A DNA stretch of 25,134 nucleotides, from positions 1-25,134 of the IMG/VR virus record IMGVR_UViG_2737471840_000004; one strand, written 5' to 3'. Positions 15,681-23,874 of this stretch are shown here, piece by piece (within the stretch, counting starts at the first letter, position 1; each line of letters starts with the position of its first letter). The DNA is from a virus. Lineage: Duplodnaviria; Heunggongvirae; Uroviricota; Caudoviricetes. A program made the position numbers and the translations under genes. The notes under the pieces were generated by a model, which was given only the letters and a program-made list of their open reading frames with translations, ran no database searches and was not told the DNA's origin.

Positions 15681-16529
15681 TTATTAACCTCATTACTGGT
15701 TGGGAAATAAGGTTGCGGTGCCGGGTGCCTCCCGGTGTCCTTTGGCTGGTTATCCACCGTGGACGGGGAAATAAGGAGAAATAATGGACAGATATAACCA
15801 TTTCCCCGCGTGCGCTTAGCCGCATTCACCGCAACGGAAAGAGCATTCCTAGTGGACCTGTAGATTGGGATATGAACCCGTTACAGGAGAATGCTCTTAC
15901 CTGTTACGTGCTCCGTTTCGTGGAGCTAACGGCGGGTGATCGGGCCGCACCAGACTGGACTTATTTCAGCGTTATGCTCATGCCAGAGAATCAAACTGTG
16001 ATGGTCGGTGCTGAACTCCGACACAGGGTTGTAGCAAGCCCCGCAAAGCGCGCACTACTGTAGTTGCGGCACATCAGCCTGTGCATTCACCACAATGTTG
16101 AGAACACTGGTTGTCACGCTGCAACGCAACATTTATTCGTAGATTGGGATATGACCCCGTTACGCCAGTGTTCTCAACGTTGTAGTGCCGGTTACGGTTC
16201 CGGCCAGGCCTCTTCCTCAACGGGGTGTTCTCCATACGGACTACCGTTTATTGGTCGTTCCTGCGGTTTATGTTGTGAAGCCAGATGCTTATCTTCTGGT
16301 TGCTTCAAAGAGCTGCACTTCATCACAACGGTAAGAGCACTCGATGCATTTAAGCCAAGCCCCATAAGGGAGAATGCCCTTACCTGTTGTGTTGTGATGA
16401 CCGGTGCTGATCTCCGGCTTGCGGTTATTTCAGACTCTCACGGGCGTTTAATTGCCCCGCCGAACAGCTCTTTTCCGCAATAGCTGCAATGTCTTTCGCG
16501 CATCAGCCTGCGCATTCATCACAACGGTA

Positions 16530-16607
16530 AGGGTACTTCGTAGGGATTCGAACCCTCTGCCAAGCTCGGCGATCTCCGACGTCGCAAAATACCCTTACCT
16601 GTTGTGC
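16530..16607 (-). pseudogene. tRNA-like remnant (acceptor plus T-arm, no anticodon arm)
   Basis: Minus strand has GGTTCGAATCC T-loop and a TATTTTG/CGAAGTA acceptor-like pairing but only 27 nt where 41 are needed, and no CCA. Confidence 0.3.
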
Positions 16608-16683
16608 TGGTGCCGATTAACGGACTCGAACCGCTGACATCCTGCTTACAAGGCAGGCGCTCTACCAACTGAGCTAAACCGGC
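16608..16683 (-). tRNA. tRNA-Thr (anticodon UGU)
   Basis: Hand-folded 76-nt cloverleaf: GCCGGTT/AATCGGC acceptor, anticodon stem CCTGC/GCAGG, loop CUUGUAA, TTCGAGT T-loop, encoded CCA. Confidence 0.85.
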
Positions 16684-16685
16684 AT

Positions 16686-16761
16686 TGGCGATGGTGGATG
16701 GATTTGAACCATCGACCCGTTGATTAACAGTCAACCGCTCTAACCGCTGAGCTACACCATC
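16686..16761 (-). tRNA. tRNA-Asn (anticodon GUU)
   Basis: Hand-folded 76-nt cloverleaf: perfect GATGGTG/CACCATC acceptor, anticodon stem GTTGA/TCAAC, loop CUGUUAA, TTCAAAT T-loop, encoded CCA; 2 nt from tRNA-Thr. Confidence 0.85.
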
Positions 16762-17226
16762 ACTTGCCGGGTACGTCTCCGGCGAGGGCTTCCACCTCCG
16801 TATGCTTTTCGGCGCACCGCGCCCTGGCTGCAATTCGGTAACAGGGGATGCACAACCCTGGCTTCCAGCGTGATTAGCGCCTTCAGCATGACGGGATATA
16901 CCCGTAAATTCGTGGAACTGTACCCAAAGTGCTGTTAAGCACCGCTGTTACGCTGAAAAGAAAACGCAACAGGAAAGGACGCTGACCAACAGATGGCCCC
17001 TTCTCGTTCATCTGGTTAATCACACCAGCGCCCTTACCTGTTGTGCCTCCCCGTTCCCTAATACACAGACGGGGACACTCTGCGGTCGATTTTTTGACGG
17101 GGGACGACTCATACCCCGTGGCGTCTGGCTTCTTAGGCCGCTACCATCATCAGATCATCGTTTGCATTTACTTTAATGGTCAGTTTCTAAACCGCCGCAA
17201 AGTCGCTAACCATGACGAAAACCCTG

Positions 17227-17252
17227 AAAAAAACGCCCACCCGAAGATGGGC
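17227..17252 (-). terminator. rho-independent terminator on minus strand
   Basis: Minus strand GCCCATC-TTCG-GGTGGGC (7-bp stem with one G-U pair) followed by GTTTTTTT; in the plus sense the wobble becomes a C-A mismatch. Confidence 0.55.
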
Positions 17253-17409
17253 AAACTGGAAGCTCGTAACGCACTTCGGCGTTGCCACTTAGGCGCATGG
17301 TCAACCTGGCAACTCGGTGGTTTGTCTGGGAGGACTAGGCCCAGCCATGCTTACCGCCGCGCCTGTCGCGGCTAACAGCTAAATCGCTCTATAAATCACG
17401 ATTCATTGA

Positions 17410-17443
17410 GGCGATATTACACTAATAAATTTATTAGAGCAAT
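17410..17443 (-). promoter_or_regulatory. putative leftward promoter with palindromic operator
   Basis: Minus strand TTGCTC, 17 nt, TAATAT; the core motif is part of the perfect 16-bp palindrome CTAATAAATTTATTAG (17422-17437) and overlaps the last codons of the methyltransferase gene. Confidence 0.45.
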
Positions 17444-23635: not shown

Positions 23636-23830
23636 AAACGTTTCGCATTCAGAAGAGGGGCAATCGACTTTCTGGTTTCAGAAAGCCCTTCATCATAGAG
23701 AACTCCGATGAGTGCCAAATGCGGGAACTACGCCGCTAATTATGCTTAATTCTTGCTTTTAGCAGGCGGTGAATAAAAAGGTTGAAATTCATTTTCTTCC
23801 GGGCAAAAATGCCATTTCACACATTAGCTT

Positions 23831-23874
23831 TGCAGGACGACCTGCAAACGCTTCTTTCACCGGGGACGGCCCCA
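23831..23874 (+). promoter_or_regulatory. guanidine-II riboswitch (mini-ykkC) upstream of sugE/gdx
   Basis: Two hairpins with ACGR tetraloops: tgcagg-ACGA-cctgca (23831-23846) and gggg-ACGG-cccc (23862-23873), 15-nt linker, then GGAG and ATG at 23892. Confidence 0.6.

Follow-up and report, generated by a model that had tools for sequence, protein, structure and literature searches.

Long RNA hairpins with conserved arms and replaceable loops at the module junctions of non-coding arrays in P1-like and unrelated enterobacterial phages

The stretch of DNA analyzed here (25,134 nucleotides (nt), positions 1 to 25,134 of the IMG/VR virus record IMGVR_UViG_2737471840_000004; hereafter "the window") belongs to a P1-like phage, and its segment 15600-17400 aligns with 99.6% identity to phage JL22 and with ~99.3% identity to P1. 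Besides two tRNA genes, this segment carries five copies of a long hairpin ("LH"), named LH-A to LH-E, which are the subject of this work. In the P1 record the same stretch lies between the C1-controlled promoter/operator Pban and the genes tciA-tciB-tciC-trnI-ban, and the tRNAs and these genes are all found on one strand, equivalent to the minus strand of the window. The positions of the dicF-like region, the C1 operator and Pban give the direction of transcription of the whole array; judged from this layout, the hairpin region makes up the non-coding leader of the ban operon, which is under C1 control and transcribed on the minus strand. Read along that strand, the order is Pban, a dicF-like small RNA (sRNA) with a terminator, a tag module resembling transfer-messenger RNA (tmRNA), LH-E, tRNA-Asn, tRNA-Thr, LH-D, X1, LH-C, X2, LH-B, X3, LH-A, X4, tciABC, trnI and ban, X1 to X4 being the elements that follow the hairpins. 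The features needed to follow the hairpins are listed below, together with their scores under R1, a covariance model built from homologous hairpins of other phages, and, where given, their minimum free energy (MFE).

~17416-17443, minus strand: C1 operator and Pban promoter (P1 annotation carried over by alignment)
17218-17319, minus strand: dicF-like region with terminator (P1 annotation carried over by alignment)
16962-17048, minus strand: LH-E, upstream of the tRNAs (R1, 46.1 bits, vs. 26.4 on the plus strand; MFE -44.8 kcal/mol, z -5.7)
16686-16761, minus strand: tRNA-Asn (GUU) (ARAGORN; Rfam tRNA model, 74.5 bits)
16608-16683, minus strand: tRNA-Thr (UGU), its CCA end followed by 1 nt and then LH-D (ARAGORN; Rfam, 72.9 bits)
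16517-16609, minus strand: LH-D, whose loop is a predicted tRNA-elbow mimic (R1, 58 bits; fold)
16321-16394, minus strand: LH-C, missing from P1 itself but found in JL22, RCS47 and P7 (R1, 61.1 bits; copy-number comparison)
16088-16188, minus strand: LH-B, with diverged arms ACAACGUUGAGAACACUGG / CCAGUGUUCUCAACAUUGU and a T-loop-like hairpin in its loop (R1, 43.6 bits; MFE -49.2 kcal/mol, z -6.5)
15827-15911, minus strand: LH-A, sharing the loop element GUAACGGGUUCAUAUCCCAAUCUAC with LH-B (R1, 63.1 bits)

A preliminary description, made from the letters of the window alone, had proposed at least five units with related inverted-repeat arms and a shared loop element, abutting real tRNAs, and the different approaches agree with it. 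The arm CACAACAGGTAAGGG (minus-strand sense) has five matches at up to three mismatches, all of them within 15894-17045, where 0.43 would be expected by chance, and five or more matches were reached in 0 of 100 shuffles; the partner arm and the flanking motif of the units are also commoner than chance. A repeat finder returned direct-repeat families, the inverted arms and the shared loop element GTAGATTGGGATATGA(A/C)CCCGTTAC, and both neighboring tRNAs were recovered by ARAGORN and Rfam. Exactly five LHs were found by R1 in the window, all on the minus strand (E-values from 4e-10 to 2e-15), each scoring far higher on this strand, which is that of the tRNAs; since homologues of the window units are part of the R1 training set, these scores express family membership and not an independent discovery. 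The five units also fold below their own shuffles (z from -5.0 to -6.5), and the minus strand folds better than the plus strand by 5-12 kcal/mol. On direct reading, the differences between the arms of LH-B and LH-C are compensatory, and the stem of LH-E reaches ~20 base pairs (bp) without a bulge because the A pairs with a U.

Beyond the window, the LH family is defined by R1, with the phage lambda hairpin after tR' as its type copy, and its members share the arms CACAAC-A-GGUAAGRGCAYU / RRUGCYCUUWCC-GUUGUG, forming ~20 bp with a bulged A; minus-strand scores lie at 44-63 bits for the window units, and the lambda copy (J02459, 44784-44865), which starts ~8 nt after the tR' U-tract, scores 66 bits. 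Conservation of the arms in other genomes, which had been suggested as a check, extends far outside the P1-like phages. The arms CACAACAGGUAAGAGCAUU...AGUGCUCUUUCCGUUGUG occur in at least 120 IMG/VR contigs (degenerate two-arm pattern), and among the matches listed 84 distinct cores can be told apart, the extended arms (C)ACAA-CAGGUAAGAGCAUU...(C)AGUGCUCUUUCCG-UUGUG being present in nearly all of them; R1 gives 278 matches in 99 loci, with the sense strand ~30 bits above the antisense strand, and BLAST of one array segment finds matches in many unrelated phages. LHs are thus present in the late leader of HK620 (between qut and the late terminator), in Uetakevirus BUCT554 and Shuimuvirus IME207, in SSU5-like phage-plasmids of Klebsiella and Escherichia marmotae, in Stx2c phages, and in a few Enterobacterales genomes (Serratia, Klebsiella, Superficieibacter, Pectobacterium). 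The rV5-like phages contain the X element together with a weak, AT-rich LH, a diverged copy of 20 bits lying in the tRNA island of one of them. The HK620-type late-leader segment, with two LHs, occurs in 154 RefSeq E. coli genomes and, among the matches listed, bears either no annotated feature or only a "hypothetical protein". For a scan of 596 Gb of genome contigs the arm pattern proved too weak, most of the at least 120 matches arising by chance; among the matches listed, true copies were found only in Enterobacterales contigs and in likely lambda-contaminant contigs, and the scan provides no usable taxonomic census. No LH was found in the Q-S regions of DLP12 and Qin in E. coli K-12 MG1655, and for this reason the published K-12 RNase III maps are of no help here. 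No Rfam 15 model fits the LH; at E<=10 the hairpins match only microRNA-precursor models, which we dismissed as a reflection of their generic long-hairpin shape. The arm sequences were not found in the searchable literature, nor was any description of family-wide conserved arms with hypervariable loops. To judge from Rfam 15, from the records of lambda, P1 and RefSeq that were examined and from the searchable literature, the family appears not to have been described before.

The stem behaves as that of an RNA. In an alignment of 48 diverse copies, on which 6 bp, a bulged A and 14 bp were imposed, 90.9% of the cells are paired (37-55% in slid controls) and 14 of the 20 pairs change on both sides, a result that 0 of 500 shuffles reach; the covariation that the preliminary description had asked about is therefore present. 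The U.U mismatch (GGUAAG/CUUUCC) is kept in 38 of the 48 copies, and a U.G wobble in 31 of them. Among 104 distinct copies, G.U or U.G pairs outnumber A.C or C.A combinations by 168 to 25, an excess which indicates that the structure is read as RNA on the sense strand, and LHs invariably point the same way as the transcription unit around them. Their basal helix spans 17-30 canonical bp, with a median of 20; together with the U.U mismatch and the bulge, this makes a near-uninterrupted duplex of about two turns in a transcribed RNA, the ban leader in the case of the window, as expected of an RNase III site.

The position of the hairpins is equally regular. On the transcribed strand another module comes directly after each LH, most often an X element, and the modules flanking LHs comprise tRNA 3' ends, tRNA 5' ends, cloverleaf RNAs similar to STnc100, and the tmRNA-like tag RNA. 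Among the fetched loci, 31 LHs start 1-2 nt after the CCA end of a tRNA-Thr, and the 3' ends of five LHs, in five contigs, overlap the 5' end of a tRNA by 2-4 nt (Arg-UCU in three cases, Gly-CCC and Gln-CUG), the tRNA then occupying the slot of the X element; other LHs come after tRNA-Ser, tRNA-Asn, a terminator U-tract or a small hairpin. From this arrangement, the LH emerges as the joint between array modules. Two of the options initially offered for the units, namely tRNA-processing or spacer structures and a small structured-RNA family, are supported by the data: the hairpins stand exactly at module junctions, and their arms are conserved far beyond related genomes on a covarying stem. The motifs GCATTCAYC and CATCAGCCTGYG had been described as preceding the units; they are present, but on the transcribed strand they constitute the 5' end of the separate cloverleaf-like X element that follows the hairpin.

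Enclosed by these arms is an extremely variable interior. The loops of 106 distinct copies fall into 43 clusters without detectable mutual similarity (~23-64 nt between the trimmed arms), and the ~20-nt arms are the same whichever loop they carry. In LH-D, the loop comprises a D-arm-like hairpin (GCGAC-GUCGGAG-AUCGC, with a GG loop) and the T-arm AGGG-UUCGAAU-CCCU, which adjoins the 3' strand of the stem; the modeled fold makes this D-type loop a tRNA elbow devoid of an anticodon arm. A T-arm and the missing anticodon arm had been pointed out beforehand for this unit; the T-arm is canonical (GGGUUCGAAUCCC), and the D-arm-like hairpin is also there. D-type loops occur as three sequence subtypes in unrelated phages, their structure being kept by compensatory changes in the adjoining stem. 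A second recurrent loop type contains the T-arm CAGAG-UUCGACU-CUCUG, which covaries with UAGAG/CUCUA, and LH-A and LH-B have a degenerate T-loop-like hairpin in common. The loops of LH-C and LH-E have no tRNA-like part, and most LH loops show no recognizable motif or common structure.

These features bear on the proposal that the units are eroded tRNA genes, in which the arms would be the surviving acceptor stem. The D- and T-arms of LH-D, with the stem in acceptor position, the T-loop-like hairpin of LH-A and LH-B, and the different tRNA content of the island in relatives (Ser in P7 and D6, Tyr in Ro157) would all fit such an origin. However, no unit is recognized by ARAGORN or by the Rfam tRNA model (RF00005) at E<=10, either as a tRNA or as a pseudogene, and arms of ~20 nt that are identical over 43 unrelated loop types and covary are not a collection of assorted 7-bp acceptor stems. 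Furthermore, intact tRNAs are found beside LHs and never inside them, and 98 of 163 LHs occur in phages with no tRNA nearby. The tRNA-like build of LH-D is a property of one loop type and not of the LH family, for which tRNA erosion is largely refuted and very improbable.

On the other hand, near-identical arms bearing 43 unrelated loop types may suggest that the hairpin itself is the product, a stable stem acting as the handle (and possibly also as a processing signal) that displays a variable loop, for instance a tRNA-elbow decoy for tRNA-binding or tRNA-cleaving factors (types D, A and B) or an antisense seed. The structural conservation of some loops favors this payload, as T-loop hairpins occur in three loop classes and covary (CAGAG/CUCUG to UAGAG/CUCUA) and the D- and T-arms of the D-type are kept in its three subtypes; in addition, the neighboring X family includes known trans-acting sRNAs with distinct seeds (STnc100/PasD). 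Nonetheless, the general lack of a motif or shared structure among the loops speaks against it, no target or partner was identified, and loop replacement would be equally expected for unconstrained loops. A displayed payload is compatible with RNase III processing rather than exclusive of it, and we regard it as rather unlikely.

Comparison of P1-like phages shows how the modules are rearranged. The window, JL22 and RCS47 have the order Thr-D-X1-C-X2, P1 has Thr-D-X2 and a total of four LHs, and P7 and Ro157c2YLVW have Thr-C-X2; in SJ46, the 5' arm of LH-B and the 3' arm of LH-A form a chimera joined within the common loop element. A single loop type can have any of at least four different X elements as its neighbor, and unrelated phages (IME207, Stx2c phages) carry elements that share 96-99% identity with X1. 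Taken together, these differences in modules, the SJ46 chimera, the loop/X combinations and the identity of X1 show the repeated arms to be recombination joints, mediating unequal and inter-phage exchange that changes the number and combination of modules. The same observations could be accommodated if the LHs were purely DNA-level recombination joints or mobile inverted repeats, similar to miniature inverted-repeat transposable elements (MITEs) or to attC sites, with no function as RNA: indel and chimera end points among P1-like phages fall in the repeated arms or loops, the same loop has many different neighbors, and X1 is nearly identical in unrelated phages. But 168 G.U against 25 A.C combinations and a strand gap of ~30 bits would not be expected of a recombination site or a DNA cruciform, neither target-site duplications nor a linked transposase or IntI are present, and the orientation is fixed with respect to the transcription unit, which makes an exclusively DNA-level role quite improbable. 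Two particular versions were rejected. As MITEs, the elements would be anomalous in that their flanks are inverted (CACAA / TTGTG) and not direct, their interiors are of 43 types, they show a strand bias, and their copies occur only within non-coding arrays; as integron attC sites, their arms do not follow the RYYYAAC...GTTRRRY core on direct reading, no IntI is annotated in the P1, lambda and HK620 contexts, and the cassettes are RNAs.

The rearrangements also bear on the coding potential of the opposite strand. The P1 record annotates upl and plp on the strand opposite to the tRNAs, and the window has open reading frames (ORFs) of 63 and 139 amino acids there, so that the plus strand might encode Upl and a putative lipoprotein, Plp, with the repeats being incidental. 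Nevertheless, these ORFs have no Pfam or NCBIfam match, the upl/plp-like ORFs (15872-16483, plus strand) traverse the hairpins and, in P1, overlap the tRNA-Thr gene that the other strand encodes, whole-module indels in close relatives alter or delete the ORF, P7 carries no such annotation, and the same hairpins occur in the non-coding leaders of unrelated phages. The upl/plp-like ORFs are probably not genes, and a protein-coding explanation of the locus is barely credible.

In a classical RNase III site, a duplex of ~20 bp separates stable RNAs that belong to one transcript, as in ribosomal RNA (rRNA) operons and T7 early RNA. What has been observed directly is an RNA family, a sense-strand structure with covariation, an exact placement at junctions, and homology to the lambda hairpin after tR'; the LH as a conserved long RNA hairpin, serving as a spacer between the modules of polycistronic non-coding transcripts in many unrelated enterobacterial phages, is strongly supported as far as the RNA family is concerned. 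That LHs are RNase III spacer hairpins is the explanation we favor, with somewhat better than even confidence, and both RNase III as the cutting enzyme and the order of the trimming steps are inferred by analogy. Under this scheme, the LH would fold during transcription into a duplex of ~20 bp (22-24 stacked positions) that includes the bulged A and the U.U mismatch; host RNase III would cut both strands of the stem, parting the 3' end of the upstream module from the 5' end of the downstream one, and the residual stem halves would melt after the double-strand cut. The tails would then be trimmed, by 3' exonucleases at the CCA end of an upstream tRNA and by RNase P at the 5' end of a downstream tRNA or tRNA-like module, and the excised upper hairpin would bear the freely replaceable loop, which in some copies such as LH-D may be a tRNA-elbow mimic.

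Lambda offers the closest point of contact with experiment. Between tR' and gene S of lambda, no other duplex is as long as the LH, which is the only one of ~22 bp there. RNase III processing sites in the lambda late leader were reportedly described by Daniels, Subbarao, Blattner and Lozeron in 1988 (Virology 167:568; title listed among the references of PMC7547250). The lambda LH may be one of the sites mapped at that time, in which case the window units would be paralogous to an RNase III site defined by experiment; no RNase III-site feature appears in the lambda records, and the positions of the sites were not found in our literature searches.

Several points weigh against spacer hairpins cut by RNase III. 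This enzyme has little sequence specificity, which does not account for arms that keep their sequence, the bulged A and the U.U mismatch when the loops are exchanged altogether; a sequence-specific partner or recombination-driven conservation may lie behind the kept arms. Five copies in one leader exceed what is needed for separating two tRNAs, and in about half of the copies the basal helix has 17-19 canonical bp, slightly under the classical two turns (~20-22 bp) unless mismatches are counted. Furthermore, trnT, plp and upl were scored as non-essential in a CRISPR interference study of P1, according to which the role of the region would be accessory; the hairpin region is not resolved in the P1 transcriptome and CRISPR interference papers.

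Several known systems resemble the LHs in part. The late leader of lambda contains a canonical copy with the same arms directly after tR', but it is a single copy in the leader of an mRNA, whereas the window has five, interspersed among the tRNAs and small RNAs of the ban operon. The spacer stems of rRNA operons and the R1-R5 sites of T7 early RNA are likewise long duplexes that separate the functional RNAs or cistrons of a single transcript and whose cleavage by RNase III is followed by trimming of the ends; however, rRNA stems flank the product and T7 stems are unrelated in sequence, while the LH lies between products and its sequence is conserved across unrelated phage families. Correia (nemis) elements of Neisseria are MITEs with inverted repeats that RNase III cleaves once they are transcribed. 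They are similarly short elements with terminal inverted repeats that form hairpins of RNase III size in transcripts, from which the LH differs by having no target duplication, a hypervariable interior, a fixed orientation, and a distribution confined to phage non-coding arrays. LH-D also recalls YrlA, a bacterial Y RNA-like molecule, in being a long stem capped by D-arm-like and T-arm hairpins; nevertheless, the Rfam YrlA model matches only the two real tRNAs (25.6 bits), no Ro/Rsr-binding motif was recognized, and most LH loops have no tRNA-like part. E. coli K-12 is not known to have Rsr. The matches of YrlA and tmRNA models over the tRNAs were discarded as by-products of their likeness to real tRNAs.

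The modules following the hairpins in the window are the X elements and, before LH-B, a remnant of a tRNA:

16386-16524, minus strand: X1, cloverleaf-like, with closing stem GUGAUGA/UCAUCAC, AAU, hairpin GCGCA-GGCUGA-UGCGC, a variable middle and last hairpin GCCGG..CCGG (fold)
16268-16328, minus strand: X2, a short spacer after LH-C (GUGAUGAAG...CUUCACAAC), its structure weakly supported (fold z -0.34, no better than shuffles)
16185-16205, minus strand: 3'-end remnant of a tRNA-Thr, CCGGAACCGUAACCGGCAC, directly 5' of LH-B in the sense of transcription and outside the hairpin (direct reading)
15993-16095, minus strand: X3, cloverleaf-like, after LH-B, with the same architecture as X1 (fold; motif GTGAATGCACAGGCTGATG at 16072-16090)
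15714-15833, minus strand: X4, STnc100-like, between LH-A and the start of tciA (fold z -3.9)

In general, X elements are built from a closing stem of 7-9 bp that starts in ..GUUGUG|GUGAAU, 3 nt, the hairpin GCGCA-GGCUGA-UGCGC, a middle part that varies, and a final hairpin directly adjoining the closing strand; the first hairpin resembles a D-arm. The closing stems covary (GUGGUG/CACCAC, GCGGUG/CACCGC, GUGCUG/CAGCAC, GUGAUG/CAUCAC; also GUUGUGC/GCACAAC in lambda vs. GUUGACC/GGUCAAC in rV5-like phages), this evidence consisting of Watson-Crick classes only, as a search allowing G.U pairs came out barely over its shuffled control. The sequence of X2 is kept in Klebsiella SSU5-like plasmids. X4 matches the Rfam STnc100 model (RF02076) with 39.2 bits (E 1.5e-6; model positions 31-147 of 206), below the gathering threshold of 47. 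STnc100 is a prophage sRNA that a recent preprint relates to PasD, and all X elements share its architecture (7-bp closing stem, first hairpin, variable middle, and last hairpin abutting the closing strand); this likeness concerns the neighbors of the LHs and not the LHs, its score is sub-threshold, and the 5' end of the STnc100 model lacks the LH arm. The lambda X (J02459, ~44855-44950) has homologues of 83% identity in the tRNA islands of virulent rV5-like phages; its identification with the annotated tRNA-Lys of these phages was rejected, as that annotation only abuts X.

As for the tRNA-Thr remnant, its place before the same hairpin type is taken by an intact tRNA-Thr (..CCGUUAACCGGCACCA) in locus L008, and the E. 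marmotae plasmid has an intact tRNA-Thr at this position. A small conserved hairpin, GCCGGA-NNNGUA-ACCGGC-A, stands directly before hairpins in unrelated phages (L011 1415-1432, L023, L099, L128; 16185-16205 in the window) and resembles the acceptor stem of tRNA-Thr with its interior deleted. P1-like phages differ in the tRNAs of the island, with an additional tRNA-Ser(UGA) in P7 (L005 1638-1724) and D6 (L003) and a tRNA-Tyr(GUA) between Asn and Thr in Ro157c2YLVW (L004 2408-2494); the same Asn/Tyr/Thr/Ser set is found in unrelated SSU5-like phage-plasmids.

At the head of the array lies the remaining module:

17030-17225, minus strand: tmRNA-like tag module (tag frame 17165-17133, pseudoknot 17118-17085, hairpin 17074-17049)

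Its frame of 33 nt, GCA AAC GAU GAU CUG AUG AUG GUA GCG GCC UAA, reads ANDDLMMVAA plus a stop. In 35 distinct copies of the module the frame always has ten codons and a stop, no start codon, and an in-frame UAG upstream. Twelve ten-residue variants were found, such as ANDDLMMVAA (P1), ANEEMYLAVA (HK620), ANDNQYLAVA, ANEEVYLAVA or ANDEQFLAVA, which resemble the E. coli tmRNA tag ANDENYALAA and have a hydrophobic, A-rich tail before the stop; a 13th match of the search expression, ANEHSAA (L053), lacks the conserved flanks and looks like chance. As in tmRNA, an H-type pseudoknot follows the tag, with seven of nine pairs changing on both sides and 87.6% of the cells paired (33-67% in slid controls). 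On the other hand, a tRNA-like domain (G3.U70 acceptor, T-arm, ACCA) was not recognized in the module, ARAGORN being negative and no acceptor stem being visible by eye, and the Rfam tmRNA models reach 14-24 bits on it, for gathering thresholds of 47-84. Literature searches for a phage tmRNA-like element found nothing usable. The module also occurs at L009 1242-1437, L007 3246-3441 and L008 3940-4135, at the head of the array after a promoter, terminator or LH.

A broader and tentative possibility, which we hold to be less probable than its absence, is that LHs, X cloverleaves and the tag module make up a modular system of non-coding RNA arrays, shared by recombination among lambdoid, P1-like, SSU5-like, epsilon15-like and rV5-like phages. 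If so, the LH would be its universal joint and processing signal, the loops and the middles of X would be interchangeable payloads (tRNA-elbow decoys, sRNA seeds), and the tag module would be a phage-borne tmRNA-like messenger without its own tRNA-like domain, which might redirect or exploit host trans-translation. The tag module may also provide a new connection of phages with ribosome rescue. Few phages have been studied as thoroughly as P1 and lambda; even so, the LH is unannotated in the lambda, P1 and RefSeq E. coli records checked, and the P1 region carries the doubtful upl and plp. The leader of the ban operon and the late leaders of lambdoid phages could be redrawn as arrays of RNA modules with a common joint, which would provide a concrete and testable maturation route for phage tRNAs and for prophage sRNAs of the STnc100/PasD type, and would account for the shuffling of modules between unrelated phages. 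A conserved stem with a replaceable loop also offers a natural scaffold on which designed RNAs could be expressed from phages.

Two further observations concern the surroundings of the array. The region labeled "dicF-like" in P1 (17218-17319, minus strand) ends in a strong hairpin resembling an intrinsic terminator, GCCCAUCUUCGGGUGGGC, followed by U7, directly upstream of the tag module, so that expression of the tRNAs and ban must use read-through or antitermination. At the Rfam gathering thresholds, the only matches in the window besides the tRNAs correspond to a guanidine-II (mini-ykkC) riboswitch at 23829-23873 on the plus strand (47.2 bits, above the gathering score), unconnected to the hairpins.

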